From NCBI GenBank assembly GCA_016928095.1, contig JAFGLL010000061.1, positions 1,181-65,180 on the forward strand: DNA of 64,000 nucleotides, written 5' to 3'. Position 1 is the stretch's first letter. Each line of letters opens with the position of its first letter. The DNA comes from Thermoplasmatota archaeon. GTDB taxonomy: Archaea > Thermoplasmatota > Penumbrarchaeia > Penumbrarchaeales > Penumbrarchaeaceae. This document shows, in pieces, positions 12,001 to 25,709 of the stretch. Made by a program: the position numbers and the translations under genes. Below the pieces are notes generated by a model that was given only the letters and a program-made list of their open reading frames with translations, ran no database searches and was not told where the DNA came from.

Positions 12001-15000
12001 GATTGTCGGCGTGACATCGAACAGGTCGCTCTCCAGGAAGATCTTCACCTGGATATATTTCGTCACAATGTTGGTTGGGGTGAAATCAACCAGATCAACA
12101 AAATAAAACGACCCGGGACCGGTAGGACCGGTCCAGGACCCGTTCTCTATCTGGGAGGTTGTGTTACCGGTTCTTATCTGGTATTTCACATTGGTTTTTT
12201 CCGGGATGGTTACCGGGATATCGACCGATATCAGCCGGACCGGTGATTCGAACGATAATATCGACGAAGTCACATCTGATCGGTACCGGACCATGCTGAA
12301 CAAATTGATCCGGCTCATTATAAACTCGTCAACCGCACCTGCGAAGTAGTTACCGTCGTCGTTTCTACCGATATATAACTTGCCGGTGTTGTCAAAAGAT
12401 AGATAAGGTACTTCAACGAAACCGTAGACACGGCCGTTGACAAACGACCGAAGTACACCGTCTCCGAACGTGAACCCGACCTGGGTCCACCGACCCACAC
12501 AATCGTTCATATCAACGTCCTCGATAGGGGTGGATGTGGAATACCAGATGGACCCGGCACGGGCATACACGATCAAGCAATAATCGTTGTAATTTTTCTC
12601 TATACTGAGATTGAACGAGTTGTCCTTTTCAAGTATCACGTACCGGTCGTCTGTTAGCTCCTGAGGCATCTTCACGAACAGACTTAGGGTCATACCATAC
12701 TCATCGTAATCGAAATTGGTGTCATTGACAAAGAGATAATCGTCAACACCGTCAAGGGAAACAGCCGACCCGATATGACCGGTGACCCAATCGGATCCGT
12801 AGCCGGACCCGTCAAATAGGACGGCTTTCTGAGAACTGTCGTGATGGTTCTTGGAGTTGAGCCCAGTTCCCTCATCAAACCTGATCGATGTGATCTGATC
12901 TGTATCAAATGACCAGGTCGAATTGAAATGATCACGTTTGACGTAGCTTATCCGGGCGTCATCAATCTTCCCGAGGAAATATTCGCCTACCTTGATCACG
13001 GCCCCGTCTTCCAGGATCGGACCGGTACTGGACACGGATTTCTGGGCGTCCAACCTGCCATTGATGAACGTTTTGATTATTCCGTTGGTATTGTCATAGG
13101 TCAACCCCACATGGTACCATGTATTGAACTGGTCATCGAAATTTAAACAACTGTATGATGTATCTGTCCATTGCTCGGACCCGTCCTGTTTGACCATGCC
13201 ACGGAGATAAATGTCGCCATAACCGTCCTCAAACAGAGATAACCCGTATGACCCTGGACGGGTGATGATGTAGTTATGACCTGCATGGCCGGTTCCTGTC
13301 GGGTAGATCCATGCATCAAGGCTGATATCAGTATCGATGGTGTAATCGAACCCGGCAGTGGTAAATGACACATACGACGAATCCGAACCGTTGAATGACA
13401 GGCATCTACCGAACCTGCCATCTGACCAGGCTGCGTCGTAGATGTCACCGTTATTGGACAGGATATTGTCAACGGTCATCGTACCAGATCCTTCGTTCAT
13501 ATTACATAGAAAAATTGTATCTTCGTCTGACAATGATTCGGATTCGGATCGGAAATATATCAATGTCGGGAAATCCGACCGGGGGATGTTGGACAATCTG
13601 ACCTCATCGAATCGACCTTTAAATTTGTTCATGTAATCATACGACTCATATTCGGCGCCAATGATCAGTCTGCTTTCATAATCACCGGACCAGTCATCAG
13701 AGTCATCAGTATCGAACTGGAGCACCCCGTCAATATACATCTTAATACCGTCGCCCCAGGTAACTGCAACATGATACCACTTGTTCGAGTCCCAGGAAGT
13801 CCGATCGGACCAGACAGTATGAGGGCTGTCATGGTCTATGATGAATGTCAAATGACCATTATCCTCATCAAAAAATAATGACATGTAATCGTTTGAAGGT
13901 CCCTTAATATCCATCAGATAAACTGGATCCTCTGACAATGCAGAGAATGGTTCTTGAAGATTGAAATACATCTCGAAGGTTCCAGTGGTCAGATTGAACC
14001 TATTACCACAATCAATATAACTACCCATACCACACGACTCAAGGCATCCATCGAAGTACCCTTTTGTATCCCATTCAAATGAATCAGGAGTGAGTGTGAA
14101 ATCGTAGCAGTCGTAATAGAATTCATTATAGACATCCATGCCTGAGGTCTCATCCAGATGAAGAAGTAATTCAGTATATATATCAGCAGAATAGGAATGC
14201 AATCCTCCTTCCCTGGGATCTAAAGGGGTTGTTTCAATGGCCTCTGTGTAAAAATACAGTTCATCGATCCAACCATGAAAGTTCGAAAAGGTGGTATATG
14301 GTAGTGCATCATTATAAGAATCTTCGGGAGGATTGCATCCCTCAGGATCGGTCAACGGTCGCTGCCCAAGAACATAAAACTCAGAATCGGTATCAAGCTC
14401 AAATTTATTCTCGACGGTTTCGTTCATCTTCTCGATATCTCGGACCTCTCCATCAAGTTCAAGGAATGCATAATGGTCCTTAAAATATACTCGGACATGA
14501 TGTGTCTCATCCTTATCTATTATATCACCTGCAGATAGTAACCGCGAGGTTGTTAAGGAACCGTTGAACATGCATGTATAACCCTGGGGAAGGTCCTCAT
14601 AATGATAAACATCAGTGAACCGGATATCGTCGACATAGAACAATCCATCATAAGGCGGTAGGTCCTTGTCAGCGATCAGGATGATCCTATCGAAACCGAA
14701 ATCTGTAGTGCTAACGATAGAAGCCCAATCCGAATAGATGTTTTCCATGAACATATCGAATTGCATATTTTGCGTCATTGTCCCATCATCTACCCAGTTA
14801 CCTACAGCCATCTCTTCTTGTGCGAAAGGTGTGGTGCCTCCAAGATAATAAATCAGCTCATTCCGTGAAGGACCAGTCCCGTTTGCAATACCAATTGCGG
14901 CTATTTCACCGATATTATCGCATCTGATGAAAAAATTGAATTGGGCAGTAGTATCCAGGTAATATTGTCCGATCTCCCATTCCATCCATGAATCACCATC

Positions 15001-16839
15001 ACATTGAAACGAGCTTAAAGGTGACAAGAAAACATTACTCTGAGATCCTTCCATTTCATCGTTGTTATCCGCTCCAGGTACTATTCCTTCATAAAAATGA
15101 AGATCTTCATTCTGGTCAATGTATAGCTCTAGTCGATTATCTTGTACTTTGGTCGGGACCAAATTTGGGATGTAATCGTATTCCAGATCAACGGTATATG
15201 TTTCTACATGGACTTGATTATTCTGAAGAACGATCCCCATTTCAGGAACTGTAAGGTTGGTATCATACAATCCCATCAACATTTTCCGATGATTTGTCTC
15301 AAGGTCACTCCTTTCGTCTTCGCAATAACCAGGATTCCTGAACCAAAAGTCAATCGTTCCATCACCATTTAGATATGGGGATTCTAATGGTTCGGAAGTG
15401 ATCCCGAGTTTTAAGTAATCATCCACCCCGTCAAAATAAATCGCTTTATCTGAATGACCGGTCTTGTACGTTGGTGTAGTACTATCATTTCCGTCATAAT
15501 ATATTGATGACCATTCTCTTGATGTTTTTTCAAATCCCAAATATTCATTTTTACTTGAATCAAATGGAAAATAACTAGTGCAATAATCCGATGCTGGATC
15601 GAATGTAAGAATAGAATAATCTTTAGGGAAACTAATCGATACACCGTCCGTCCAGAAATCTAAATCGGTTGAGTCTACCCGATCAGATGACTTGTTCAAT
15701 TCCCACATTACCGATGAAGTGGTATCTATCAAGACCAGTTGACCAGATCCTTTTTCTCCTCCCTGTTGGGCTGCCATTCCAAATAAGTTCCCTGATTGGA
15801 AATCTGTAATTGTTTCATTTGATATTTTACCTCCAAACCCGGAAATGTTTGTGAAATAAACATATACGGAATTATTTCCCGGTGCTGAAATGACCAAGTC
15901 ATTTAGCCCGTCGCCGTTCATATCGCCGTTGAAATCGATCTTGCTTCCGAACATGTCCCCGGAGTCTTTCCCGTATAATTTTATATCCGCATCGAACGGG
16001 GTCAGCTCGGACAAACAAATATCCGGACTGCCATAGAAAAGGTAAACCGCACCAGCATCCGACGCAACAGTATCGTCATACGGAGCCGATATCACCACAT
16101 CCGTGAAGGTATCATTGTTGAAGTCCCACATGCAACTGACATAGGTTCCGAAACCATTGTCCCCTTCGTTATCGTAGATCATCGCCCCTTCGCTTGTGGA
16201 GTTGAAGAAATAGATACCGAACTGGTTGTTGTAGATCTCGTTATTTGTGATGATCGGGTTCGAACAGACGAAAATACCGAATATCTCGTTGTCATGGATC
16301 TTACTACTAGATATACTGACGTTGTCACCGAGTACAACGATACCTCCCTCGGAGGGGGAGCCGCCGACAAAGGAGATGTCGGAGTTCTGAATGGAGGCGT
16401 TGCCCTCGATCTTGAGATCATAAAAATATCCACCAGACCTGTTGATAACCGATACCGTGGTCCCGTCAAGGTATAACTCACCGCATATTCCGGTTGTTTC
16501 GTTCTTCTGGACATGCAGGATGAAGTTACCCTCGACCGGATGATGGAAAAGTAACTCACAGTTGATAAGAGAGAGATTCCCACCTGGTTGGATCACCACA
16601 TTACCGTAGATCTTCAGTACTTCATTCTCTCTGACGACCGTATCACCCGGTTCGATGTACCAGTCATTGTAGGTGTAGCCATCATAAGGTTCGCCCACCT
16701 CGGACCAGAGTTTGTCCACGATAGGGCTGAAATTCACGATGTACATCATAACAACTAAGGAAATGGCGATCACCTTCGTTGCTCTCGATATTTTTTTCTG
16801 GATGTTTTCAGAAATATGGATCTTCTCTTGCCATCTCAT
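1..16839 (-). CDS. Giant secreted/membrane-anchored surface protein (adhesin-like), 5' end at ATG 16839, 3' end beyond the left edge (>=5,613 codons in window)
   Basis: Hand translation of the minus frame: ATG at 16839-16837 is preceded by an in-frame TAA at 16863-16861 and a G-rich stretch (GGGGGGAAG) 7 nt upstream. N-terminus MRWQEKIHISENIQKKISRATKVIAISLVVMMYIVNF is a signal anchor. Downstream are right-handed beta-helix repeats (IHDNEIFGIFVCSNPIITNNEIYNNQFGIYFFNS) and FG-GAP-like repeats (DFNNDTFTDVVISAPYDD..GAVYLFYGS; DFNGDMNGDGLNDLVISAPGNNSVYVYF). Spot translations at ~12000, ~8000, 241-420 and 1-60 stay open in the same frame. Near the left edge the sequence is calcium-binding repeats (ADCDNDGLLDSVEPDPFTDTDGDGYINVWDQDSNDGEGNG). 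Every ORF the track lists in 1-16839 is short and in another frame. The track skipped this ORF because it has no stop inside the window. Confidence 0.8.
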   Translation of the reverse strand, partial: MRWQEKIHISENIQKKISRATKVIAISLVVMMYIVNFSPIVDKLWSEVGEPYDGYTYNDWYIEPGDTVVRENEVLKIYGNVVIQPGGNLSLINCELLFHHPVEGNFILHVQKNETTGICGELYLDGTTVSVINRSGGYFYDLKIEGNASIQNSDISFVGGSPSEGGIVVLGDNVSISSSKIHDNEIFGIFVCSNPIITNNEIYNNQFGIYFFNSTSEGAMIYDNEGDNGFGTYVSCMWDFNNDTFTDVVISAPYDDTVASDAGAVYLFYGSPDICLSELTPFDADIKLYGKDSGDMFGSKIDFNGDMNGDGLNDLVISAPGNNSVYVYFTNISGFGGKISNETITDFQSGNLFGMAAQQGGEKGSGQLVLIDTTSSVMWELNKSSDRVDSTDLDFWTDGVSISFPKDYSILTFDPASDYCTSYFPFDSSKNEYLGFEKTSREWSSIYYDGNDSTTPTYKTGHSDKAIYFDGVDDYLKLGITSEPLESPYLNGDGTIDFWFRNPGYCEDERSDLETNHRKMLMGLYDTNLTVPEMGIVLQNNQVHVETYTVDLEYDYIPNLVPTKVQDNRLELYIDQNEDLHFYEGIVPGADNNDEMEGSQSNVFLSPLSSFQCDGDSWMEWEIGQYYLDTTAQFNFFIRCDNIGEIAAIGIANGTGPSRNELIYYLGGTTPFAQEEMAVGNWVDDGTMTQNMQFDMFMENIYSDWASIVSTTDFGFDRIILIADKDLPPYDGLFYVDDIRFTDVYHYEDLPQGYTCMFNGSLTTSRLLSAGDIIDKDETHHVRVYFKDHYAFLELDGEVRDIEKMNETVENKFELDTDSEFYVLGQRPLTDPEGCNPPEDSYNDALPYTTFSNFHGWIDELYFYTEAIETTPLDPREGGLHSYSADIYTELLLHLDETSGMDVYNEFYYDCYDFTLTPDSFEWDTKGYFDGCLESCGMGSYIDCGNRFNLTTGTFEMYFNLQEPFSALSEDPVYLMDIKGPSNDYMSLFFDEDNGHLTFIIDHDSPHTVWSDRTSWDSNKWYHVAVTWGDGIKMYIDGVLQFDTDDSDDWSGDYESRLIIGAEYESYDYMNKFKGRFDEVRLSNIPRSDFPTLIYFRSESESLSDEDTIFLCNMNEGSGTMTVDNILSNNGDIYDAAWSDGRFGRCLSFNGSDSSYVSFTTAGFDYTIDTDISLDAWIYPTGTGHAGHNYIITRPGSYGLSLFEDGYGDIYLRGMVKQDGSEQWTDTSYSCLNFDDQFNTWYHVGLTYDNTNGIIKTFINGRLDAQKSVSSTGPILEDGAVIKVGEYFLGKIDDARISYVKRDHFNSTWSFDTDQITSIRFDEGTGLNSKNHHDSSQKAVLFDGSGYGSDWVTGHIGSAVSLDGVDDYLFVNDTNFDYDEYGMTLSLFVKMPQELTDDRYVILEKDNSFNLSIEKNYNDYCLIVYARAGSIWYSTSTPIEDVDMNDCVGRWTQVGFTFGDGVLRSFVNGRVYGFVEVPYLSFDNTGKLYIGRNDDGNYFAGAVDEFIMSRINLFSMVRYRSDVTSSILSFESPVRLISVDIPVTIPEKTNVKYQIRTGNTTSQIENGSWTGPTGPGSFYFVDLVDFTPTNIVTKYIQVKIFLESDLFDVTPTIYSVNVTGSGYHDEGSYLSSVAELPDWADQVVPQIIYSQNGRSVSFDLGWSVDGDTWYYEPMSSGTPIQFNSYYTKFFRIRINISEADYYNGAFTPSFDSIRLWYQFKATLGSIQISEADSTFGSSFTSGGDFNGDGYSDVAVGSPGENKVYIYFGGGSMDETADCVLTSAETGFGANLTQVGDYTGDGMTELAVGCDYSSSVYLYSGSRLSGSKSSDCYEDIIFGSGDFGTNVFNVGDINGDRFDDIAVFAGNSTLSVYSGQALFESNNLTYSEYFTQFTSESTTTLGYQCVGGFDINGDFVQDLIITDPDSIEAYIMLGSAVNTDPISVSSALYTFTGSGSGVGFGEAVSAGDINGDGFTEFLLGEPTAICSGGSGVVRSPGPSTARVSDNIFYGNYIGLFADGSQQSMRGDSFYLNDYIIYSSSSTLILIGVRINNETSDLTENCNIGMEVHGGNLLMYSSQVYSMDNTVINNFNGNVSLYNVSFSQSRTEYTIDYSVASIDELNENLILDGSAIKLKESGSDTIFSENWSVIDQEKWNATGTGTVSKSNNTWSGSGSDLKVTCEGTESEASYETLEYTIDFDESDQAMDYVLQTRFLLMANPENFTEGSIASISFNISRDDQNFKSRKMVFSSFDYTLLGDHPEENDWNYTGESWEKSIKTGYHWTWYHVTNTSYVDKSLDDPLLELFGQVFRENNTGWTEIDNLTIRITVLEDPTEESIGLGFDPEVYVEGITVTNSNYVPVYYTDGFLVSDVITRPTNNQWDELFVTYQDPDDLYRLNLYLLDGSNDTITKVDTLPFDLTPYNGYSELKFKASFQGNSFSTSRLTKWGISFSNINDTAVRSSNGQISMSGCSFDEDMSNQLDLDGGCQGRMIDTLTDDNKVTISDPGSFLDVYGRVQIETYPEIHPFMDPGFQHDVTPFMDFDIVNRTGVRVFNGFTGSDGVLSDILIKENTWTSNGIIFHGPFNIRSYETCMDFDGDDYIALNMSFSEKNCITQMSAFCWFKTTESGMGQNLNWAFLDFDRSEYFNIYVRGDNGNMGFSTKSDNGIDDLIGTTAVNDGDWHFMCAVYDGTDKYLYLDGDLEAIAENPHNGLGLGTTATRFGFIGDGSEATTFDGNRNEYYFKGKIDDVGYFGRALTFDEINLFMIGEPPSDPDLFISFEDSNWTSGTYTIRDLSGNSYHGTSYGNPEFRLTNEFDDQCNHGILNNASFTPGLSRTLWINSYSLDSDDDYILDSQENNENVCWYEGEDFGLTTDQIEPSWDACGEKALKPTSSGSLINKYLPVPPGSDDSIRFMFRLGPQNQVFNQTVKISVWEVDGYTADPLTINQSFILSSRFRYYTTEIFSIDPDTDMLKISIDSTDAVLLDSFVIIRSDDELDGLITNPVMMDSDKDLIIDGVEQRSGTLWFEAEYYGDGDISPFINASSGHVIYNESLSTNLISIPVQLDNGTEYRYYFRSRADQDSEWEVYDTFDDVYDFMDNWEHVGSGESDGAITIDDSGSGNAHYSVNVACMDTDISNDVYYSLREFQTNFTCLFNYTVRSETKLGRESRMIFGVVDGDDDSLRATFSIGFTETNRSNAQYNDLDFAGNQIMLISDGKEIGFYRKNYLGSYSQLGSADIRSYSSFRIFFGISAGNKNLTSPGEGVTHVWMNDVMIKEENLKLEVLDSSQSSIAVKNFSLDNKFRWNYITFEPEESGTHYLVSSRKAGVGLFADKAMVCNMSQVKQTLFGDDTGDTSILEITETDFSQDEEYGYTFPIHTSYLPGTSFATSAFFRLRTDLENIDPVDEFTSNNQYRDPSVVYGNKIAWTELVGSNYVLKVYDMVLDTTDTYNSEGKDFRHPSICGNHVVFECWDGAESVIYLVELNLTGQQFRQLNSTLEEQLNPYIYEDRIVFQARNGSDFDIYLFDIDLDNDGIPNFYEPGYLTDDDDDSYTNEDPFNYLDDDDDGDIDEDISYNGIFHVELNTSSNFIDEDWDQTYPRIEDDRIVFLDTHAGATSVWIAGVTSVKPYAGMPTEACLKVNSTSLISGDYTECWNPRISGSNLLFAAYAGFQVSSGTESRPAIGIYDLSHNQLKFVPISVAGFDVYNENIVYSTSEGSLGVYDINVNFNKILMESCSPSVPAIHKNTFCWLNDTTSNQNIVSVYSQYIEIEASSSGSGILESSKVIPLDELSSDFGPDILEYLYGKTTDQTYEMEIHTKNPLNVTLDHLEINLEFIMDPLDPDTDYDNVNDGEEIVTFGGVSILECEDAQLYKPWNPTYMTEFLSEDNELLKTTAGYGFFQQRSVSLISSNYNDTILDSSIKLQFVPDKTGTYRFSLNYPAESRQDKLVGTMIPGNLPRTELLPQGSLNVTDLDLNSSEAEYLQDILSESFQMRVYYSYNEVSPIEYSSESTYTENVNIIKVVNTSNDPNEEPIKAVIGEITSQGEYLLQGGMMYYLELSLDLADQTSETPEGVIDPDRITLQYLDYIRVDYQGLDPMNRDSDMDDIDDGDEAFNETRYALSSDPDHDGISDKWEDYFGTDFGDRDSDGDGIRDGVELGLSGQFIEYINGDVNSTGSFFERIAHSSDRSPFNFSLINNFDADNGATLTDPMDPDTDNDGLPDGWIDGWYYGDEVFPRLYRKSYDSFWDRYANLDYWEYQPWKWDRKMDPDNVKQIYEGEDLNLDGKTEPFDAVWSFDPYTFEVAGVGETNASSLDTDGDSIDDGYEVWYSHIWPYFIYRDGTVEGLDPTVDDDDKDIDGVDVLWEAGLMEGETNPETIDYDNEYDDRGTYDWQFWSSMCEGSSLNRIHGFAQRLDVKAGDLFDADYIEVKADFYSETIVEIWEGTDPDWLNTNPKTVYPERPVFQLKMPPTVSDDGWIKIPLAGNFDYLPSISMTTDVYPVYFIVLRNEFMHPNEGPGLVWHTKHTMEDPGQVLIFTDLVFQDENIPEESYDALWESVKLGTAPDEMVREMFHNFWAFYPNFQFFDAWQIKNTSSNKFCAKFGYRIVDLDKESIKMNVPYYKENWEDDKFPLIDQNELAIRLMNFTEDERFDFFEGRFYVQTDDSWSGDIYLMEGKDQPHNSLQSMDIDLPADFEGWFIFDINGLVMPESGMQYFIVISGDESMQMLNLINNDDDNSPLDYMMKNGEYAPWESVPAGTQPAFILLSNKFDSYQYGDDLSNRDEYIIGTHPKKNNTDRMIIEDDVYNDYLDDGEEIYAGGSSAYHTKGGVIYRSSFDGGSLRFEGYDNSSAWLNYDWDGFGAAITMNFTYSRMVTNPPADSPCGWDNITLLFRLKDESGVFMDESSSQLYIWDKKNVIPDSQDSESGYKILPGKVAIYNRSGTEQNMNHLPIDRNREVYFCNPFEIDSDIDGIVDGQEVQMFSDSDSDYVANLRDTDSDNDKVLDRQEINWSLNSGDDDGIENMIDPDSDNDGLLDGDEVSWNFDTDDDGYENMIDPDSDGDGLPDGWMDGMIWDPIDKEFVDYSNTFVNDGDYNGYSFVDEVNGYFDPWEGEDSNMNGKHDRDEPDPTKADTDGDSLWDGFDVYSNASVRTGLPAHYGELYYCSDSWLDDEYDDGMPFSAGDQRRIAQSKAFKTGILLQMTNQMGADSDGDGLTDYEEILIWTLKVEDFVPAYNLTSNDYNNRKIKTFFAQNLIGSKYLSSDPNDPDSDDDGLSDKDEYKFTNPLDVDTDNDGLPDKMENWHNYGMRDYDETNPCDRDTDNDGLPDGWCDGWDTEHTSAVDIIETGECEFNIADSEDGWNSYPQYTNQIEFGEYKKVGVDYTQLSDPLRADTDEDGIIDGIEYCYYWNVKGDPFYDSDGDNKFDLREIDSDNDGFTDGEENRNQNFELDYAWAIYVPGPGDNWNDNSKPTGSEWVNYPYFTEGYKVKHYLESDPTIADCDNDGLLDSVEPDPFTDTDGDGYINVWDQDSNDGEGNGPGHGPKAWTYGNLTIYTPDDNKDDSFSHNAMFYDLVDPSEWDHKDFNQTYIVFRTNANDTDEDLRIDYNDIGNNSGRWVS

Positions 16840-17224
16840 AACACTTCCCCCCAGATTTCTTTATCCATTCAAACCATTGAATGATGGGGTATTTAAATGA
16901 AAATAAAAATGGACCTCCCGCAAGGGGGGTCTATATAATACTTTCGCTTTCATTTTTATCACCGGAAAAAAAGACGTGTTCCAAGGGTATGACATATGGC
17001 CGAAAGGGGGGAGAAAGTGACCGGGAGGCCATGAGGATGACCATAATACAGGAGACTCCAACGAAATTTAGGTCCCATGATATATCGATAAACAGAAAGG
17101 GTATCCCCTTTGTAAGTCCATACCCCCATCAGAGCGAAAAGTGGACTTCAATGATCATGATCCTGACGAGATGGATGGAATCTTTTTATTACCAATATCA
17201 GTATGTCATATATTGGGTCCAATA

Positions 17225-18274
17225 ATGAAACTTGACATGTCAAAGATGATTCCTGTTGTACTGATAGTAATTCTATCGGTCCCTCTATTTTACTACATAT
17301 TATTCTATCCCGATAAAAGAAACAATGATACTGAAAACAGATTGGATATGGTCATAGGTTTCTATATCTCAGGTGAGGATTTTCTTCAACAACTCATCGA
17401 CGAGGATATATCAGACACATTAGGATTGTCATCCGATAGGATCGAATTCTATTACCTTGTCGACTATTCCGGGTTCGGAAATACTGAGTTCTTTCATGCC
17501 AGGAATTATACTAAGATCCCATTGAATATCTCACAAATTCTTCCATATGACTCTTCAGAACTGGATATGGGCTCGGATGAGGTATTTGCAGGTTTTGTCG
17601 ATTATATATCTGATATCGAGGCAAAAGATCATTGCTTGATCATATGGGGACATGGACGGGGGTATGAAGGAGTATGTTTTGATGGCAGTTCCATGCTCAC
17701 AGGAAAAGAGATCGGATCGAGTCTTACCGGAAAAGGAATAGACCTTCTCATCTTTGATGCCTGTGAAATGATCTGTGCTGAATTCCTCTACGAATTGAGA
17801 GATCCGGTTAGATACATACTCGGATCGGAAAAGGATATCCCGGATCGCGGATTGGATTATTCAGGGGGGTTCACAAGGTTTTTTGGATCCAATTCGAGAG
17901 ATATCAAGAACCTTGCCATCGACATCATGGATGAAACTTTTTCGTATTATTCCAGGAACCCGTCCAGGTTCTCCTTACAACTATCGTTGATCGATATGTC
18001 GGACTTCATGGCATTTTCTCGGGACTTCACATCATCCTTTCTGACCGAGAACTCCATCTATCCGGATCGTTTCGAATCCGGGAAGAGGTTCGACCTTGGG
18101 CTTCTTCTCGAAATGAACAATGAAACATGCCTCCTGAGGACGTTGGAGGATTCGATAGAATACCTGATGATCCTTCCATCCACTTCAGGGGTACCGGTCA
18201 AAGGCCTGTACGGTATATCCGTCCTGTCGCCTGAGTTCACAGAAGATGGGATCGACAATCCGTTCCTTCTCTGA
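17225..18274 (+). CDS. Membrane-anchored clan CD cysteine peptidase (C11 clostripain-like)
   Basis: Track ORF 17141..18274 begins at a GTG. The more likely start is ATG 17225 (MKLDMSKM), followed by a TM helix (IPVVLIVILSVPLFYYILF). Catalytic His-Gly and Cys motifs typical of C11/clan CD: LIIWGHGRGYEG and LLIFDACEM. A TATA-like CATATATT sits ~20 nt upstream. Transcribed divergently from the giant surface protein. Confidence 0.55.
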   Translation: MKLDMSKMIPVVLIVILSVPLFYYILFYPDKRNNDTENRLDMVIGFYISGEDFLQQLIDEDISDTLGLSSDRIEFYYLVDYSGFGNTEFFHARNYTKIPLNISQILPYDSSELDMGSDEVFAGFVDYISDIEAKDHCLIIWGHGRGYEGVCFDGSSMLTGKEIGSSLTGKGIDLLIFDACEMICAEFLYELRDPVRYILGSEKDIPDRGLDYSGGFTRFFGSNSRDIKNLAIDIMDETFSYYSRNPSRFSLQLSLIDMSDFMAFSRDFTSSFLTENSIYPDRFESGKRFDLGLLLEMNNETCLLRTLEDSIEYLMILPSTSGVPVKGLYGISVLSPEFTEDGIDNPFLL

Positions 18275-18650: not shown

Positions 18651-18723
18651 TAGCCCCGGGCGGATTCGAACCGCCGTCTCCGGCTCCAAAGGCCGGAATG
18701 ATTGACCACTACACTACGGGGCT
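18651..18723 (-). tRNA. tRNA-Gln (anticodon TTG)
   Basis: Minus-strand sequence AGCCCCGTAGTGTAGTGGTCAATCATTCCGGCCTTTGGAGCCGGAGACGGCGGTTCGAATCCGCCCGGGGCTA. Acceptor AGCCCCG/CGGGGCT, anticodon stem CCGGC/GCCGG with loop CTTTGGA (anticodon UUG), T arm GGCGG-TTCGAAT-CCGCC. No encoded CCA. Confidence 0.85.
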
Positions 18724-18756: not shown

Positions 18757-20334
18757 TTAATCCTTTTCCATTTTTCCAAGTGCCAAGCGAAGCTTTCTTA
18801 GGACCTCGTCCTTATCCATCGTCGACAGGAAGAAACCCAGACGTGGGCCTTTGTCCCGTCCGAGCAATATCCTATAGAAAGCAGTGAACGTCACCTTGGG
18901 ATCGATCCCCCTGGACCTCGACCCCTCGTAAATGGTGTTGTGTATCGACCCGGGTTCCCAGGGGATCCTCCGGAAATCCGTGTACATCGCTTCAAGGGCG
19001 GAAAGCTGGCCGTCATTCAGCTTTTCAACCTCCTCCTTCGGAGGGTCATCGTAAAGCCTGAACTTGACCTCATCAGGGGCGAATCTCTTGAGCCAGAAAT
19101 CCACACAAGCCTTCCTGTGGGAAAGTCTTTCGAGGGAAGCCTCGTCGAGCTCCTCTATCCCCTCGGTCCTCTTTATCATGGAAACCAGGTCGTCCATCTC
19201 CAATACGAGCTGGGTCAAGGTGACAAGGTGCCTGTAGGGGATGTTCACGAAGCGGCCCATGCTATCGTGGTCCTCCGGTTTGCCGACCATGGAGAGCATG
19301 TAGGTCCTCTTCATATCGTCAGGGTCATCGTTACCCTCGTCCTTGTAGAAGTTCTCCTCGTACCTGTCGTATTCGTCCACAAGGTTTAGTATTCCCAAAC
19401 CCGGGTCCATATCGATATGCTTGGCGGGCTGGTTCCTTGATATAAGGAACCGCAGCACCTCGGGCGGGGTCATCCGGAGCATGTCGACACCGCTCACGAC
19501 CACACCGCTGGATGAGGACATGGCTCCTTTACCCTTGAGCTGGATCCATTCGTAGACCACGGGTATCGGTGGCGGGTAGTCTAGCACGGACCTCGCGATC
19601 TCGGACGAGGTATCGTATGATCCGCCGGAGGCAGCATGGTCCTTACCGAAAGGTTCGCATGTCACCCCCAGCCAATACCATCTTGCCGGCCAGTCCAATC
19701 TCCAGGGGAGCTTGCCGTCATCCGTTCGAGTGTCGGCCTCTCCCTCATGACCGCAGGAGCACCTGAAGAGTACGTAAGGGGGGGCCCATTCATACGGTCT
19801 GGTCGAATCGATCCTGCCGCACGATGGACATTTCGGATTGTAAGGGAACCAGTCAGGGGGTAGCTCTCTTCCCGATACCCTGTTCAGTATCTCCCTAACC
19901 TTCTCCCTAGAATCCATCAGGATCGCCGTAGCCTTGGCGTACCTGCCTTCTCTGTAGGATATGCTTGACGGAAGTACCACGGGTCTTATACCGAGGACCT
20001 CCACGGACCGAAGGAACGGTTCGAGGAAATGCTGAGCATAGGTTTTCCCTCCACCTTCCGGCGAGGGTATCTCCGATAGGGGTTTGCCAACATGCTCCGA
20101 ATATTCTTCCGGGAGGAAAGGATATACCTTTCGGAGGGGATCGAAATCATCGGCAAGATAATACAGGGTAGAATCGACACCTATGTCCATGGCCGCTCTA
20201 TGGACCAGGTCCCCGGTAAGGATCTCCCTCATGTTCCCGACGTGTATATGACCGGAGGGAGTTATCCCCGTCGCTATGCGATGGGACCCACCGGTTTCCT
20301 TCAGCTTCCTGGCTATCACATCTGCCCAATGCAT
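18757..20334 (-). CDS. lysK: Lysyl-tRNA synthetase, class I (archaeal type)
   Basis: 525 aa. HIGH-type motif HIHVGN near the N-terminus and KMSKS variant (AMSSSSG). The overall sequence looks like archaeal class I LysRS. Confidence 0.9.
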   Translation of the reverse strand: MHWADVIARKLKETGGSHRIATGITPSGHIHVGNMREILTGDLVHRAAMDIGVDSTLYYLADDFDPLRKVYPFLPEEYSEHVGKPLSEIPSPEGGGKTYAQHFLEPFLRSVEVLGIRPVVLPSSISYREGRYAKATAILMDSREKVREILNRVSGRELPPDWFPYNPKCPSCGRIDSTRPYEWAPPYVLFRCSCGHEGEADTRTDDGKLPWRLDWPARWYWLGVTCEPFGKDHAASGGSYDTSSEIARSVLDYPPPIPVVYEWIQLKGKGAMSSSSGVVVSGVDMLRMTPPEVLRFLISRNQPAKHIDMDPGLGILNLVDEYDRYEENFYKDEGNDDPDDMKRTYMLSMVGKPEDHDSMGRFVNIPYRHLVTLTQLVLEMDDLVSMIKRTEGIEELDEASLERLSHRKACVDFWLKRFAPDEVKFRLYDDPPKEEVEKLNDGQLSALEAMYTDFRRIPWEPGSIHNTIYEGSRSRGIDPKVTFTAFYRILLGRDKGPRLGFFLSTMDKDEVLRKLRLALGKMEKD

Positions 20335-20355: not shown

Positions 20356-20955
20356 TCAAACCACATGCGTCCTGATAAGGGCCCTTACCGGGACCCCCTC
20401 TATCTGGTCGAAGTTCTGTTTGTTCACAATTGAGAGACACAGGGTCGGTTCACCCTGGTTCGCCTTCAGGAACTCTATGGCGTTCTTCATCGTGTTACCT
20501 GTTGAGAGGACGTCATCGACGATCGCGATCCTCTTGTCGCGTACGCCTGCGTAATTGGAAAGGATGGACCCCATACCCTCACTCGTGTCATCACCTCTTC
20601 TGGGTCTATAGACGATGAGCTCCAGGTCCATCTCGTTGGCTATAGTGGTGGCAAGAGGTATACCATTGATCGCGATACCCATTATTGCATCCACCTCGGT
20701 CTCGTTCCTGGCGCATTCTTCCAGGATTATATCGGAGAATATCCGTGCCATGTGGGTAAGCCTCGATGAGTAAACCCCCACGGACCTCCATCCGATGTAG
20801 ATGTCGGCCGGGGGCTTTTCTGACCCCTTGCCCCTTGAGAGCAACCAGCCCACGGTCTCCTCGGACAGGTGAAGCTCTTTGGCTATGTCTTCCCTGGACA
20901 GTCCCTTCTCCCGGAGTTCAAGTACCTGTTTGATCATTTTCTCCGTGGTTGGCAT
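20356..20955 (-). CDS. gfcR: GfcR-type regulator (HTH plus orotate phosphoribosyltransferase-like PRT domain)
   Basis: 199 aa. N-terminal HTH (KGLSREDIAKELHLSEETVGWLL) followed by a type I PRT fold with the PRPP-binding loop (IAIVDDVLSTGNTM). A TATA-like AAATATATAA lies ~45 nt upstream on the minus strand. Confidence 0.7.
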   Translation of the reverse strand: MPTTEKMIKQVLELREKGLSREDIAKELHLSEETVGWLLSRGKGSEKPPADIYIGWRSVGVYSSRLTHMARIFSDIILEECARNETEVDAIMGIAINGIPLATTIANEMDLELIVYRPRRGDDTSEGMGSILSNYAGVRDKRIAIVDDVLSTGNTMKNAIEFLKANQGEPTLCLSIVNKQNFDQIEGVPVRALIRTHVV

Positions 20956-21100
20956 TTGTTCACCTCATTGATGCGACCGATGATGAAGCACCTTGATTAT
21001 ATATTTTTCACAAGATGATCGGACCTTGACTGCCCGGTGCATATGGAATTAAGAGGTTGCGGAAACGGTTCTTTCCGCACCCATTTTCAGAAGGTCTCCT

Positions 21101-21589
21101 TCACTCGCTATTTTGGTATTCACTCTCTGCTTTTGCCAGTTTGATCCCGTCCATGACCTCGATTATCTCGGATGGGTTCAACCTCAGCCTTCTCTCGGAG
21201 ATGCCTGTCCTGATAAGCACCTTCCAGACCTTGAAGGTCTTCAACTTCTCGAAGGGGATCTCCAGATCGTATACTTTACCGACCTTCTCCCCCTCGTGAT
21301 CGAGAACGGTCAGCTTTCTGAGCTTTTCGAAGGGATATCTTTCTCTTTGGGGACGTTCGGGTCTGTCTTCCGATCTGAAATCGTCCTTGAGTATCATGAT
21401 CTTATCTCCCTCGTCCAACTTCACGACGTCCTCGATGCCGACCAGGAGATCCTTCTTCAATGCTCCCGGGGACACCTCGAACCCGGTGATGGTCCATGTG
21501 CTCAGATCCATGTAGATATCCGATATCCTTCCAACATGCGTCCCCACCGAGTTGACGACCTTGTATTCCTTGATAACGTTTGCAAGCAT
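21101..21589 (-). CDS. PRC-barrel domain protein (two PRC-like halves)
   Basis: 162 aa. PRC-barrel-like pattern VVNSVGTHVGRISDIYMDLSTWTITGFEV and a second half LTVLDHEGEKVGKVYDLEIPFEKLKTFKVWKV. Last gene of a five-gene minus-strand cluster with 4-13 nt spacers. A hairpin gcggaaacggttctttccgc (21058-21077) follows its stop. Confidence 0.55.
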   Translation of the reverse strand: MLANVIKEYKVVNSVGTHVGRISDIYMDLSTWTITGFEVSPGALKKDLLVGIEDVVKLDEGDKIMILKDDFRSEDRPERPQRERYPFEKLRKLTVLDHEGEKVGKVYDLEIPFEKLKTFKVWKVLIRTGISERRLRLNPSEIIEVMDGIKLAKAESEYQNSE

Positions 21590-21593
21590 GCGT

Positions 21594-21944
21594 TCACCCC
21601 GATTTCTTCTTGGACACGGTCTTTACCTGAGCGATCTCCTTTTCCATTGCCGATATCCTGGCATCGGCCTCCAACATGTACTCCCTGACCGTGGAGATCC
21701 TTGAGGTGAGGCTGGAATATCTGAGCTCGTAGGCTTCGATGTCCAGACCCGTTAGGATGCCGTATTCCTGGATGTATGCGTTCATGTTCTGGTCAAGATA
21801 CTTCTCGATCCTTCCATCAAGGAGCTTTCGCTTGTAATGGGGAGCGTTTTGAACCTCCTCCTCTTCCTCATTGCCTCCGAAAAGGGACCTGAACCATTCG
21901 AAAAAGCCTTTTTTCTCCTGTTGTTCCTCGGTGTTCTCATCCAT
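21594..21944 (-). CDS. Small acidic coiled-coil protein (paralog 1 of 3)
   Basis: 116 aa. Glu-rich N-terminus and a C-terminal heptad-like coiled coil (LRYSSLTSRISTVREYMLEADARISAMEKEIAQVK). 4 nt upstream of the PRC-barrel gene. Confidence 0.5.
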   Translation of the reverse strand: MDENTEEQQEKKGFFEWFRSLFGGNEEEEEVQNAPHYKRKLLDGRIEKYLDQNMNAYIQEYGILTGLDIEAYELRYSSLTSRISTVREYMLEADARISAMEKEIAQVKTVSKKKSG

Positions 21945-21957
21945 TCATGTCACCTCC

Positions 21958-22290
21958 TCAGATACCCTCCAGTTCTCCCAACTGTGTCTCCAACGTGGAC
22001 ATCCTCTTGTCCAGCGTGGTCCTTCTCTTTTCAAGGTTCTCTATATCGGAACCGACCTTACCAAGCTTCTTTCCCATCTCGTTCTTGAACTCCTTGATGC
22101 GATCCCGTGAGGTCAGGTCCCATTCACCGATCATCCCTCGGAAGTGTTCGTCGAAATAGAGTTCTATATGGGAGGGTTCCATTTTCCTCTTCTTCCTGAG
22201 CTGTAGGTACCAGATCATCACGAGCACCAGAGCGACCAGAAGCAGGCCGATAACGAGAACATACCAGAATGTCGTCCAATCCCAACCCAT
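21958..22290 (-). CDS. Small coiled-coil protein with N-terminal transmembrane helix (paralog 2 of 3)
   Basis: 110 aa. N-terminal TM (WYVLVIGLLLVALVLVMIWYL), then coiled coil (KVGSDIENLEKRRTTLDKRMSTLETQLGELE). Confidence 0.5.
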   Translation of the reverse strand: MGWDWTTFWYVLVIGLLLVALVLVMIWYLQLRKKRKMEPSHIELYFDEHFRGMIGEWDLTSRDRIKEFKNEMGKKLGKVGSDIENLEKRRTTLDKRMSTLETQLGELEGI

Positions 22291-22300
22291 TCACATCACC

Positions 22301-22573
22301 TCACTTTACCCCGTACTTCATCTTGAGCCGATCGAGCCTTGCTCTACCGGTCACGAGCCTCTCGTCGAAGGCCTTTTTCCATCTGTCAAGCTCGTCCATC
22401 CTTCCTTCCAGACCCTCAAAGTCTTTGTCAAGATCGACCACGTCGTTGCGGTCAGCTATCTTGTATTCGTCCATCAGCAGGGGCAGCCTCTCGCTGAGAT
22501 ACTGATCGATCTTCCTGTTGATGGATAGAGGGTGGGTAACGGATATGGCCTGTATGCTTTGTCCTATTCCCAT
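22301..22573 (-). CDS. Small coiled-coil protein (paralog 3 of 3)
   Basis: 90 aa. Coiled-coil segment DLDKDFEGLEGRMDELDRWKKAFDERLVTGRARLDRLK with the same periodic L/R pattern as its two neighbours. Confidence 0.5.
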   Translation of the reverse strand: MGIGQSIQAISVTHPLSINRKIDQYLSERLPLLMDEYKIADRNDVVDLDKDFEGLEGRMDELDRWKKAFDERLVTGRARLDRLKMKYGVK

Positions 22574-22585
22574 TCAATCACCTTT

Positions 22586-23077
22586 CTAATCATTTTCTGC
22601 GCTTGTCCGTTCGAACCTGGAAACGAATTTCTGCCAGGTCTCCCTCAATTCTCCCGTCATCTCGTGGTAGGGTTCGACCTCGACAACATCTCCCTCGTCG
22701 ATGCCAAGGTGTTTCATGTCCCCCGAACGCAGGATGATCACATCCGTGGGGGCTATCTCATCACCGACCAATTTCACGACGCAGTGCTTCTTGCCGTGTC
22801 TTATCACAGCCGTTCTCATCTCCTCGTCCCTGAACATATCCAGATGAGAATGATGAAGCCTGGCGATACCACCTTCTACAGAGGATATCCTGCTTCGTCG
22901 GACGGGAAGACTTATGTTCACGTCCTCTTTCTCTTCAGGTTCCATTGTTTCACCCGGTAACGATATATATCCAAATCTGTGGCAACGGTTATTAAAGTTT
23001 TCCCTTTGATCGACCTTCTCCGGGATAGGTCCCGTTCCTTTCCGGGTTCCTCGATATACATCAGAGAGGTCGACCAT
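22586..23077 (-). CDS. Hypothetical protein with a Cdc48/VAT N-domain-like (double-psi beta-barrel-like) C-terminal half
   Basis: 163 aa. GIARLHHSHLDMFRDEEMRTAVIRHGKKHCVVKLVGDEIAPTDVIILRSGDMKHLGIDEGDVVEV resembles the substrate-recognition N domain of Cdc48/VAT. First gene of the five-gene cluster. Confidence 0.35.
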   Translation of the reverse strand: MVDLSDVYRGTRKGTGPIPEKVDQRENFNNRCHRFGYISLPGETMEPEEKEDVNISLPVRRSRISSVEGGIARLHHSHLDMFRDEEMRTAVIRHGKKHCVVKLVGDEIAPTDVIILRSGDMKHLGIDEGDVVEVEPYHEMTGELRETWQKFVSRFERTSAEND

Positions 23078-23120
23078 CCTACCCTGTGCTACTCAAAATG
23101 TTTATAATGGAAAGGTCATT

Positions 23121-25709
23121 TTGAGGGATGTATCCAGTTGTTTTCGGGTCGAGGTGTCCTTCATGGTCAGACCAACGCTTGACAGGTCCTTCTACGGTAT
23201 AATGTTAGCCTTGCTTTTCGTCCTTTCCAGTATCATGATAATATCCCGGGATGAAACTACGGTCGTTGCTCTGGAGCCTTCCAGAGGGGCCGGCCCCCAG
23301 GTGAACAGGTCATCGGTGGTGATAACCCTTTACGAGGGGTTCGACGAATTCTCCGGTCAATATTTCTACGGGACCGGAAAGGGTTCCCTTGATCTCTTTT
23401 TCGATCCGAACTACAACTGGAAGGAAGGCGAGATCCCGTACCCCCACAAAGCATTCGAGGTAGAGTATCCCGTCGGGTATGATAGAACGAACACTCCGAT
23501 AGGGATAACGTTCGTGACATCTCACTACGACACAAGTTTCGCAATGGCAACCGTAAAATGCAATAATTTCGATTTTAATTCATATATCTACGGTCAGGAC
23601 CATTTCAAGATAACGGTGAAAGCATGGAACTCGACCGGTAGCTCGACAGCAGAGCTCTGGTTCCAGGTCCTGAACGTGAACGATCCCCCCACGGTGATAT
23701 CGGAGAAGGATTTCTTCTCCATAGCCATGAACGAGGATTCCCATTATGAGGGAATCAATGGCGACCATGACCAGCTCGATGATATTTTCGGGGACAACAG
23801 GGACCAAGACGATACGCTCACGTTCACATACGAACCCATGAACGCTCTGGCGGGTCCGGAGAATATCGTGGTGGACCTGGAACCGGACGGTTCCTCCGTG
23901 GTCTTCACTCCCCAACCCGATTGGGCGTGCCCGTATGTCCCTACCACCGACAGGCTCAAGGGGAGGAATTACAGACCCGGTGGGGAGCTGACATGGTCGG
24001 ATTTCTTTGCACACTTCAGGTTCAACTGCTCGGACCTGGAGGGGGCTTATGTGACAGGTGATCTCTATGTATATGTCGGACCGGTGAACGATGTCCCGGT
24101 CATGGAGTTCATGGAACACTTCTACGTGAACGAAGATATCAAGGCTGTCCTTCAATTCACTGCCACGGATGTCGACCCCGAGCAGGAGCAGGTCCTGAGG
24201 TACGGGACCAATATCACAACGATAATATACGAGTATTCGGGCGTCCAGCTGGAGTTCACCGAGGGGTATCTATTCGATACGAAGACCGGCAAGCTGGAGT
24301 TCAAGACCGAGAACAAGATGGTGGGGGATTATCCGGTCAGTGCCTGGGTGAACGACAGACCCTCCGAGGAACTCGGCAGCAAGGGTGATTATCCTGTCAC
24401 ACCCTACAAGGTCTATTCCAATTTCACACTGCATATAGTGAACTTGAACGATCCCCCGACGGCTGTGATGGACTCTCCGATCGAGACCTTCGTTTATAAT
24501 ACGATGGAACCGGTCGAAATGAATGCTACAAGGACCACCGATCCGGACATGATCCACGGTCAGGTTTTGACCTATAAATGGTCAGTGAACGGAGAACCCG
24601 TGGGTGAAGGGATGGTGATGGAGCATCTGTTCGATCAGAAGGGCGAATATACCGTCACACTCAACGTGACCGATGGTGAGTTCCACTCCACCATCTCCAG
24701 GAAGATAGAGGTGGAGAAGACAAGGGTCCTTGGAGAGATATTCGAGGGGAAGGATATCGACCGCAGCTATACCGACAACATCTCGGAAGCACTCGTTCTG
24801 CACAGGAACCAGGATGAGATGTTCATGGAGTTCGATTCATTGGAATCCGTCGATATCAGGACAGTTGACGGCTACCGCGACCCTTCCAATCCGAACATCT
24901 ACAAGCTCAAGGTAGTATTTGGCAAGAGGATGGATTTTCTATTCACTGAGGATTTCCTGCAGGAACCGGTCCTCAATATCTATTTCCTGAAACCGGATTT
25001 CGTGGAGGATAAGGTGGCCCCGAAGGATTCGGATATCCCGACCTACAATTTCCCGGTCCCCACATCGAACTATCGCTACAACAAGATATCCTTCGATCTG
25101 AGGCAGATATCGGTGATATACTATCCGATCACTGACAAGGTCCCGTCCATACGCAAGCTGGATACCGAGATGGGTGTGGAAATAACACTGACCGTCGCCG
25201 AGCTGGACGAGATGAACATCGATCCCGATTTCGTCATTTACGTGACCGCGGATATGAAGACCACGGTGACCGAGGGTTCCGGCAGGATAACCATAATAAA
25301 ATCCTGGGATGCCGCAGGGTTCGGTGCAAAGGTGCCTCAGGTGGATGTGGGCACCTCCGATGGTGAGGTGGATGGAAATGATGATCTCAACCCTCTGGTA
25401 ATTATCATCCCGGTGATCCTGCTGGTATTGATCGTGGTGGCTGTGGTGGTCCTGGTAATATTGATGTTCGTGAAGAAGGAGAAGAAGGAAGAGCTCCCTC
25501 CCGTTTACATACCTCCTCCGGACCAGTCGCTGGATGATATGATATTCGGCAATACACAAAAGCCCATGACAGCGGAACAGATGTATGGTAAACCCCAAGC
25601 CCAGGATCAACCGCTTCCACCAGGTCCGCCCCCGGAAGGTCTACCTCCTTTGAAACCCGAAGCTGCTGGCGGTTTGGTATCGGAAGGCGCGTTACCCCCG
25701 GCCTCTTAG
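23121..25709 (+). CDS. Large type-I membrane-anchored surface protein (cadherin-like/PKD-like repeats, C-terminal TM plus Pro-rich tail)
   Basis: 862 aa. Possible start at the second Met (~23163), which gives a signal-peptide-like MVRPTLDRSFYGIMLALLFVLSSIMII. Repeated LNVNDPPT/VNLNDPPT/VNDVPV motifs between beta-rich domains. C-terminal TM PLVIIIPVILLVLIVVAVVVLVILMFV, then KKEKKEE and a proline-rich tail. Confidence 0.8.
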   Translation: MRDVSSCFRVEVSFMVRPTLDRSFYGIMLALLFVLSSIMIISRDETTVVALEPSRGAGPQVNRSSVVITLYEGFDEFSGQYFYGTGKGSLDLFFDPNYNWKEGEIPYPHKAFEVEYPVGYDRTNTPIGITFVTSHYDTSFAMATVKCNNFDFNSYIYGQDHFKITVKAWNSTGSSTAELWFQVLNVNDPPTVISEKDFFSIAMNEDSHYEGINGDHDQLDDIFGDNRDQDDTLTFTYEPMNALAGPENIVVDLEPDGSSVVFTPQPDWACPYVPTTDRLKGRNYRPGGELTWSDFFAHFRFNCSDLEGAYVTGDLYVYVGPVNDVPVMEFMEHFYVNEDIKAVLQFTATDVDPEQEQVLRYGTNITTIIYEYSGVQLEFTEGYLFDTKTGKLEFKTENKMVGDYPVSAWVNDRPSEELGSKGDYPVTPYKVYSNFTLHIVNLNDPPTAVMDSPIETFVYNTMEPVEMNATRTTDPDMIHGQVLTYKWSVNGEPVGEGMVMEHLFDQKGEYTVTLNVTDGEFHSTISRKIEVEKTRVLGEIFEGKDIDRSYTDNISEALVLHRNQDEMFMEFDSLESVDIRTVDGYRDPSNPNIYKLKVVFGKRMDFLFTEDFLQEPVLNIYFLKPDFVEDKVAPKDSDIPTYNFPVPTSNYRYNKISFDLRQISVIYYPITDKVPSIRKLDTEMGVEITLTVAELDEMNIDPDFVIYVTADMKTTVTEGSGRITIIKSWDAAGFGAKVPQVDVGTSDGEVDGNDDLNPLVIIIPVILLVLIVVAVVVLVILMFVKKEKKEELPPVYIPPPDQSLDDMIFGNTQKPMTAEQMYGKPQAQDQPLPPGPPPEGLPPLKPEAAGGLVSEGALPPAS

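Follow-up and report, generated by a model that had tools for sequence, protein, structure and literature searches.

A conserved five-gene operon of Thermoplasmatota that probably encodes a membrane-anchored scaffold with three paralogous coiled-coil proteins

What can be built together by the products of five small, tightly packed archaeal genes? The question is raised by a locus on the minus strand (21101-22945) of a 64,000-nucleotide stretch of contig JAFGLL010000061.1, which belongs to a metagenome-assembled genome (MAG) of a Thermoplasmatota archaeon; the whole stretch is called the window below. In the source MAG the operon region carries the locus tags JXA22_05635-05650. The genes, named here g1 to g5 in their order along the minus strand, encode a stand-alone barrel resembling a part of the Cdc48/VAT N-domain (g1), three coiled-coil proteins (g2, g3 and g4) and a double PRC barrel (g5). 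Our analysis confirms that the operon is real and conserved. No counterpart of it is described in the libraries and literature searched, and the operon probably builds a membrane-anchored scaffold. With a probability of roughly 0.45, we take this scaffold to be a membrane-tethered heteromeric coiled-coil platform which docks the PRC-barrel and the Cdc48-N-like proteins.

An initial annotation, made from the sequence alone, described a compact operon of five co-oriented genes with 4-13 nt spacers; the spacers measured are 12, 10, 13 and 4 nt. The consecutive open reading frames (ORFs) over 21101-23077 (minus strand) have 163, 90, 110, 116 and 162 codons, and GGTGA or GAGGTGA is located 4-7 nt ahead of every one of the five start codons, so that each gene has its own Shine-Dalgarno sequence. 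For g1, it is the internal ATG at 22945 that has this motif ahead of it, not the ATG at 23077. The homologs of g1 are all 119-124 aa long and begin at the equivalent of M45, and an independent gene call on a public contig also gives 119 aa. Since the homolog lengths, the unconserved N-terminal extension and the GGTGA before 22945 all point to the same codon, we assign g1 to 22586-22945 (119 aa) and correct the start at 23077 (163 aa), which had been taken from the mechanical ORF.

An inverted repeat, GCGGAAA-gaaccg-TTTCCGC (21059-21078, minus strand), read from the sequence and having 7-bp arms, is located 23 nt past the g5 stop and is a candidate end of the transcription unit. The next downstream gene is separated from g5 by a 145-bp gap which holds both this hairpin and, about 100 nt beyond it, a separate TATA-like ATATATAA box. 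Because of these two elements, the five genes look like one transcription unit, apparently distinct from the genes for a phosphoribosyltransferase (PRTase)-like regulator and a lysyl-tRNA synthetase (LysRS) that follow, and the operon described initially appears compact on this ground as well. Upstream of g1, a TATA-like box TTATAAA (23101-23107, minus strand, also read from the sequence) lies in the 217-bp divergent intergenic region and could serve either of the divergent genes. The GC content of the operon equals that of its surroundings. A scan of the whole window with Rfam found two tRNAs and nothing within the operon, and no second operon copy was found by tblastn inside the 64-kb window.

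The three middle genes, g2 (22301-22573, minus strand, 90 aa), g3 (21958-22290, minus strand, 110 aa) and g4 (21594-21944, minus strand, 116 aa), match no Pfam or NCBIfam family. Their products have in common a domain of about 70 aa, referred to here as the YLD domain, in which a helix with the pattern I-D/E-x-Y-L-D...E-W/Y-x-L-x-T-x-x-D is followed by a heptad coiled coil. The heptad register is unbroken in the C-terminal half of all three proteins, with hydrophobic residues in 12/12 a/d positions of g4 (residues 66-107), 9/10 of g3 (70-104) and 7/8 of g2. Pairwise BLASTP among the three is marginal. When alignments from four genomes were compared with hhalign, g2-g4, g2-g3 and g3-g4 matched at E 1.4e-3, 4e-3 and 1e-3, respectively, in the same register and with the same motif aligned in all three pairs: I-[DE]-x-Y-[LF]-x-E, seven residues, E-[WY]-x-[IL]. 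Paralogy is decisively supported by proteins of a Theionarchaeal operon, because these intermediates match all three hidden Markov models (HMMs) at once: one matches those of g2, g3 and g4 at 5e-8, 1.5e-13 and 1.8e-8, another at 5e-7, 9e-8 and 2.8e-14. A single MAFFT alignment places the trio and these intermediates in one domain of about 70 aa. Profile comparison thus confirms g2, g3 and g4 as paralogs. The initial annotation had regarded the three proteins of 90-116 aa as paralogous and as sharing a C-terminal heptad coiled coil; both statements hold, and the part in common is larger than the coiled coil and comprises the whole domain.

With the shared-domain profile, 172 clusters were found among 5.8 billion proteins, in Thermoplasmatota, Theionarchaea and Methanolinea mesophila, and the domain is a candidate new protein family, a small one. 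Matches of the small proteins to characterised families would have counted against the initial annotation; those of the window reach no threshold. Prefoldin was rejected, as g3 matches it only at E 0.17 over 27 residues (Pfam) and the g4 model lacks a beta hairpin. DivIVA/GpsB-like proteins differ in motif order, and an ESCRT-III/PspA identity is at odds with the shortness of the proteins and their lack of a helical hairpin. Searched against PDB profiles, the shared domain found only generic, mostly trimeric coiled coils (sigma-1, HA2, GCN4 fusions), which are no evidence of homology.

g2, the soluble member of the trio, is the most conserved gene of the operon. Its identity between genomes is 87-91%, where that of g1 is 57-64%, which is the constraint expected from multiple binding interfaces. 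Distant g2 orthologs carry an N-terminal amphipathic motif, GIFKKIKGKF or GVFERIRGWF. g3 is bitopic: the N-terminal transmembrane (TM) helix noted initially in one of the small proteins spans residues ~8-30 and is followed by RKKRK, then by the YLD domain with its coiled coil. Since the TM helix precedes RKKRK, the coiled coil is predicted to face the cytoplasm.

In the AlphaFold2 model, g4 has helices 4-22, 45-61 and 66-114 (49 residues) and a disordered acidic linker; its C-terminus is a basic tail, KKK. The N-terminal helix KKGFFEWFRSLFGG is strongly amphipathic (hydrophobic moment 0.69) and by its sequence resembles a membrane-targeting helix. As a lead only, we presume a resemblance of KKGFFEWFRSLFGG to the C-terminal membrane-targeting sequence of MinD. 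The g4 family gave 166 matches in a word-indexed search, and the g4 profile found 35 at E<=1e-3 among 1.84 billion representative proteins.

g5 (21101-21589, minus strand, 162 aa) is a PRC-barrel protein, as had been annotated, and contains two copies of the barrel: Pfam PF05239 matches it in two stretches at E 1.4e-12, the sole threshold-passing Pfam or NCBIfam family among the five window proteins. For a profile of six g5 orthologs, the best solved relative is 8qzo_A (E 5e-4), followed by the chains of 8onw. The protein in 8QZO, Archaeoglobus fulgidus CdpB2 (PMC13488343), is likewise built of two PRC barrels, and in its domain layout g5 fits the architecture of an archaeal stand-alone PRC protein with one or two barrels, of the CdpB type. 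PRC-barrel proteins have only recently been shown to be core to archaeal division, and the roles demonstrated for them in archaea are division roles, those of CdvA in Crenarchaea and of CdpB1/B2 (10.1101/2023.03.28.534520; 10.1101/2023.03.28.534543). CdpB1/B2 bind the membrane anchor SepF and were modelled as filaments, and the cdpB genes are stand-alone in Haloferax (10.1101/2023.03.28.534543). Zhao et al. reported that PRC-barrel genes often adjoin Cdc48 genes in archaea, are often located near translation genes, and that stand-alone PRC-barrel proteins do not all act in division (10.1101/2023.03.28.534520).

The product of g1 is a double-psi beta-barrel made of two beta-beta-alpha-beta halves and resembles the first half (Nn) of the Cdc48/VAT N-domain. 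A VAT-N-like domain upstream of the coiled-coil genes had been proposed; g1 is indeed Cdc48-N-like, but only as far as the double-psi barrel half is concerned. In its 119 aa, barrel and one helix, there is no Nc beta-clam subdomain and no AAA D1 or D2 domain. Compared to the N-domain of Cdc48/p97/VAT, g1 stands alone, without Nc or ATPase, and ends with an amphipathic helix, TWQKFVSRFER. The window g1 scores 20.4 bits with Pfam CDC48_N, below the gathering cut-off of 35.1, and its best homologs reach 31.8-32.5 bits. One g1 homolog barely attains the cut-off of the MazE/AbrB Pfam family (24.8 vs 24.7 bits), and the homologs from Theionarchaea and Methanolinea bear apolipoprotein-like amphipathic repeats.

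To follow the operon beyond the window, profiles of g1 and g4 were used to fetch loci (L numbers below) from GTDB genomes, from JGI metagenomes and by way of a gene-position index, and the loci were scanned with the five HMMs. Locus counts reflect this pattern-based retrieval and are not a census; likewise, the three loci from a GTDB genome scan with g1 depend on exact peptide patterns and are not a genome count. About 20 fetched loci, with at least 10 distinct sequence versions among them, keep the genes in the order g1-g2-g3-g4-g5. This order is present in every locus long enough to hold it, down to ~40% identity at g4, and is thus strongly conserved in relatives.

Two sub-types of the operon exist, and both are found in the window's own MAG. 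In the window sub-type g2 is 90 aa long, and the neighbours are always a divergent gene for a PKD/cadherin-like membrane protein and genes for cyclophilin, a GfcR-like PRTase and LysRS; its synteny with housekeeping genes is stable across genomes. The second sub-type has a 96-aa g2, overlapping stop/start codons and other neighbourhoods. The one directly observed case of a second operon is L005, from the window's own MAG, where g1-g4 are followed by the contig end; two or three g4 homologs occur in the MAGs JXA22, JW939, R6V01, ACMUIE and ACMUHB. In two loci, L024 and L008, only a 5'-truncated g4 and g5 are found. L024 (5686-6333) and L016 (1-1565), of which the latter has five genes, are 99.8% identical downstream and 84% upstream, so L024 represents either a natural g1-g3 deletion or a chimeric assembly. 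Just upstream of a second-type operon, at L018 340-4000, the peptide strings HGLLAVAPLK / SMGPRPVGHGE are repeated in all frames, which indicates a CRISPR-like array of direct repeats in this sequence.

More distant Thermoplasmatota have a seven-gene form, g1-g2-g3-gX-g4-Zn-g5 (L031, L033, L032, L023), where gX encodes a second TM coiled-coil protein and Zn a CPYC...CPYC zinc-ribbon protein. In another locus, L030, gX and Zn come after g5 and are followed by a 94-aa g1 paralog (CDC48_N, E 1e-7), which matches the window g1 by tblastn at E 8e-7. This barrel gene directly precedes one whose 392-aa product combines two TM helices with one AAA domain; the best PDB matches of that domain are the D2 domains of Cdc48/p97/VAT (E 1e-121). 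The two genes (L030 8163-9653) thus make up a 'split' membrane Cdc48, and a gene for an MscS channel adjoins them. In Theionarchaea and Methanolinea, the g1-like barrel shares its polypeptide with an apolipoprotein-like region (and with TrkA_C in Theionarchaea). Next come gX, three shared-domain members including a single TM-anchored one, and a Prok-RING_2 protein; neither group's form of the module has a PRC barrel. One Thermoplasmata MAG has g2-g3-g4-g5 without g1. On the opposite strand of a Theionarchaeal locus (L026 217-1541, minus strand), ~1.8 kb upstream of where the module begins, there are genes for a ParA/MinD-like ATPase and for a Roadblock/LC7 protein. Module copies repeatedly adjoin genes related to ion transport: Na/H exchanger, P-type ATPases, MgtC, MscS and the TrkA_C fusion.

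All variants of the module, including those of Theionarchaea and Methanolinea, keep exactly three shared-domain members, one of which has a TM helix. Such constancy is the pattern expected of an obligate hetero-oligomer. From the comparison across forms, the constant core is the paralog trio, usually accompanied by the barrel protein and gX. By the same comparison, the PRC barrel is a Thermoplasmatota addition and the window operon a reduced form which lacks gX and Zn.

Our analysis establishes which folds the proteins have, that three of them are paralogs, that they carry membrane-anchoring elements, how the operon is built and that it is conserved across lineages. We propose that the five products assemble into one complex on the cytoplasmic face of the membrane. 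g2, g3 and g4, in each of which a T-x-x-D turn joins a short helix to a long one, would pair via their long heptad helices into a parallel hetero-oligomeric stalk, 1:1:1 being the simplest stoichiometry. The N-termini of the stalk would lie at the membrane, held by the TM helix of g3 and by the amphipathic helix of g4 on its flexible acidic linker, and g2 carries a degenerate form of the amphipathic motif. A parallel, hetero-oligomeric and membrane-tethered coiled coil is suggested by the presence of three paralogs in every form, by the membrane-binding elements at their N-termini and at the C-terminus of g1, and by the continuous heptads. The stalk would dock g5, a double PRC barrel with a two-barrel architecture like that of CdpB2, and g1, a double-psi barrel with an amphipathic tail of its own. 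In such an arrangement, g1 could act as an N-domain in trans, linking the platform or its clients to an AAA+ ATPase of the Cdc48/VAT type.

The platform would then work in the manner of CdvA or of SepF-CdpB1/B2, in which a membrane tether and PRC units organise other proteins, and it is best read as a functional analogue of these systems and a member of neither. A membrane platform with a CdpB2-like PRC protein and a Cdc48-N adaptor appears to be the most economical reading, because the known archaeal PRC roles are in division and because PRC and Cdc48 genes are adjacent in archaea. The physical assembly, its stoichiometry, the docking of the PRC barrel and the connection to Cdc48 are what we infer from all this. 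Our guesses at the cellular process, which we infer in the same way, are of roughly equal weight: cell division or envelope organisation on one side and Cdc48-dependent handling of membrane proteins on the other.

Several points weigh against this platform. The structure models cover single chains only, and the confidence of that for g1 is no more than moderate (pLDDT 68.5). The likeness of g5 to CdpB2 is weak (E 5e-4). Since the PRC barrel is absent in the Theionarchaea and Methanolinea forms, it is placed outside the oldest core. An AAA ATPase gene is adjacent in one examined locus only, and none is found among the window genes scanned (17-37 kb). The link from the VAT-N-like domain to an AAA ATPase gains support from one related locus, L030, in which a g1 homolog directly precedes the membrane-anchored Cdc48-D2-like ATPase; the 'filament' mentioned in the initial annotation finds no support in our analysis. 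Finally, a general adaptor would account for the two or three copies per genome and the varied neighbourhoods, often with ion transporters, no less well than a division role would.

A likeness to CdvA, from the ESCRT-based division of Crenarchaea and Thaumarchaea, had also been pointed out. It stands as an architectural analogy: in both cases a PRC barrel and a coiled coil go with membrane association, and CdvA is a small scaffold on the cytoplasmic face which recruits other proteins, as the platform would be. However, CdvA joins PRC, coiled coil and E3B peptide, in that order, in a single chain, and its gene sits with cdvB and cdvC. In the operon studied here the parts are separate polypeptides in the reverse order, as the PRC barrel is doubled, has its own polypeptide and is encoded downstream of the three coiled-coil genes, whose family is distinct. 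g5 is PRC-PRC without a coiled coil, so the N-terminal fusion of PRC to a coiled coil typical of CdvA is lacking, and so is the PRC barrel itself in Theionarchaea and Methanolinea. No CdvB or CdvC neighbour and no other ESCRT-III/Vps4 gene was found beside the operon, whether in the window or in the loci fetched, the E3B motif not having been searched for specifically.

The SepF-CdpB1-CdpB2 complex of FtsZ-based archaeal division (Nussbaum et al.; Zhao et al.) is similar in that an anchor with an amphipathic helix holds PRC units and that A. fulgidus CdpB2 is the best solved match of g5. It differs from the operon by its linked partners, no SepF or FtsZ gene being linked here, and by its anchor, which in the operon is an unrelated three-paralog coiled coil; several MAGs have two or three copies. 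FtsB, FtsL and DivIC are small bitopic bacterial proteins of ~100 aa with an N-terminal TM helix and a coiled coil, which form heteromeric bundles facing the periplasm. g3 has a similar architecture, yet no sequence relationship was detected, and g3 is predicted to face the cytoplasm.

Two other explanations deserve most attention, both of which we hold to be unlikely and to the same degree. One is a scaffold for cell division or constriction, in which g4 and g5 together would amount to a 'split CdvA', with the trio standing in for SepF, or assisting it, as the membrane anchor of CdpB-like PRC-barrel polymers in a lineage without CdvA. Apart from CdpB2 being the best solved relative of g5 and division the demonstrated role of archaeal PRC barrels, it draws on the adjacency of g4 and g5, a pair retained in L024, and on the finding that some Thermoplasmata lack SepF and PRC proteins or have a reduced ESCRT set (PMC11188069). 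A pure division role is disfavoured by the multiple copies in several MAGs, by the lack of a PRC barrel in the oldest forms and by the adjacency of ion transporters; furthermore, no FtsZ, SepF or ESCRT gene adjoins the module in any locus, and according to Zhao et al. stand-alone PRC-barrel proteins do not all act in division (10.1101/2023.03.28.534520). The other explanation is a membrane adaptor of a Cdc48/VAT-type unfoldase for membrane-protein extraction or quality control, similar to Ufd1/UBX cofactors or to a membrane-anchored AAA protein with a single ring such as Msp1, where g1 would be the N-domain in trans and the coiled coils a receptor or regulator. It accords with the Cdc48-N fold of g1, with the TM-anchored Cdc48-D2-like AAA gene and g1 paralog directly downstream of the module in L030, with the zinc-ribbon or Prok-RING_2 proteins that recur in longer forms, and with the reported PRC-Cdc48 adjacency (10.1101/2023.03.28.534520). 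Nevertheless, L030 is the only locus with an adjacent AAA gene, the window form has neither the AAA nor the zinc-ribbon gene, no protease, ubiquitin-like or JAB genes were seen, and the double-psi barrel fold serves unrelated purposes too.

The remaining explanations are far less probable. A coat of the phasin or apolipoprotein kind around a lipid or polymer inclusion or on a stressed membrane, with the PRC and double-psi barrels as accessories, appears very unlikely. Phasin (PF05597 / COG3937) does resemble the trio in having a hydrophobic helix, a short turn and a heptad helix of the pattern D/E-h-x-x-L-x-x-R-h; one g2 homolog was auto-named 'phasin' by IMG, and the Theionarchaeal apolipoprotein-like fusion with TrkA_C and the frequent proximity of ion transporters or MscS would suit a coat. 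Still, the matches to PF05597 are confined to three distant members, P0151, P0153 and P0160 (E 4e-4, 0.013 and 0.014), at 15.9-20.8 bits against a cut-off of 28.8 and over profile positions 53-124 only, in the C-terminal part of the profile. The matched helix-turn-coiled-coil motif recurs in unrelated proteins, the window proteins give no Phasin match, no genes for polyhydroxyalkanoate (PHA) synthase are nearby, the context differs, and one paralog is an integral membrane protein. We find it hardly probable that the operon belongs to a translation or ribosome-maturation set with a RimM-like PRC barrel beside LysRS. Class I LysRS and the GfcR-like PRTase do lie downstream of the window-type copy, a weak NCBIfam RimM match exists (E 0.004, far below the cut-off) and PRC genes are often near translation genes (10.1101/2023.03.28.534520), but the 145-bp gap with its hairpin and TATA-like box intervenes, the second operon type and all distant forms lie away from translation genes, and the membrane anchors would be left without an explanation. 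Least probable of all is a mobile defence, toxin-antitoxin or viral cassette. Several copies per genome, small proteins, varied neighbourhoods, the g1 homolog at the MazE/AbrB cut-off and the CRISPR-like repeats beside one copy (L018) would speak for it. Against it stand the stable housekeeping synteny of the window type, the GC content equal to that of the surroundings, the lack of an integrase or transposase nearby and the absence of significant matches in PADLOC/PHROGs, where g2 in PADLOC (E 0.007) and g3 in PHROGs (E 0.003-0.004) are at chance level.

A broader and rather improbable reading treats the operon as a pared-down version of a euryarchaeal membrane machine not described before. 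In it, a heterotrimeric, membrane-anchored coiled coil would be assembled, and a Cdc48-type ATPase, recruited via the N-domain in trans, would then disassemble it or extract its clients. Its ancestral set might have comprised the Cdc48-N-like barrel, the TM coiled-coil protein, the three coiled-coil paralogs and a zinc-finger protein, with the PRC barrel or a membrane-anchored Cdc48-like AAA protein as options. If true, this would be a prokaryotic counterpart of the SNARE-NSF or ESCRT-Vps4 cycles, relevant to membrane remodelling or division in lineages without CdvA. A SNARE-like bundle as such was rejected, because the TM helix is N-terminal and not a tail anchor, and is retained only within this speculative AAA-cycle reading. 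Literature searches, which included Prok-RING and stand-alone double-psi barrel operons, found no description of the module. A membrane-tethered PRC-barrel scaffold is of a kind already known, the coiled-coil domain family is undescribed, and the wider module as a new machine is a minority possibility.

In the platform we favour, the trio and the stand-alone Cdc48-N-like barrel are conserved candidate partners for PRC barrels, whose partners are known only from Haloferax and Sulfolobus. They also bear on the adjacency of PRC and Cdc48 genes, noted previously with no explanation given, and on Thermoplasmatota, a phylum in which the machinery of division and of the membrane is reduced and varied to an unusual degree. 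Methanolinea mesophila, a methanogen available in culture, has the domain as well, its homologous cluster comprising J2741_002175 and neighbouring genes, which opens the prediction to experiment.

Divergently from the operon, window positions 23121-25709 (plus strand) encode a protein of 862 aa that contains PKD/cadherin-like domains and ends with a TM helix in its C-terminal part; its true start is likely near 23163, and its position is kept in L004, L006, L009 and L012. Downstream of the operon, the helix-turn-helix PRTase gene (20356-20955, minus strand), GfcR / orotate-PRTase-like by NCBIfam NF002620 (E 4e-64), is followed by class I LysRS (18757-20334, minus strand) and a tRNA (18651-18723, minus strand), and these three are syntenic in all window-type loci. 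A clostripain-like C11 peptidase gene (17141-18274) adjoins a giant gene (1-16860, minus strand), a stop-free frame of at least 5,620 codons which runs off the window start and has a GC content of 0.41-0.50 against ~0.52 in the rest of the window. On the other side of the operon, a KaiC-like ATPase is encoded at 30962-31696 (minus strand) beside an 836-aa TPR-repeat protein (31825-34335, minus strand).

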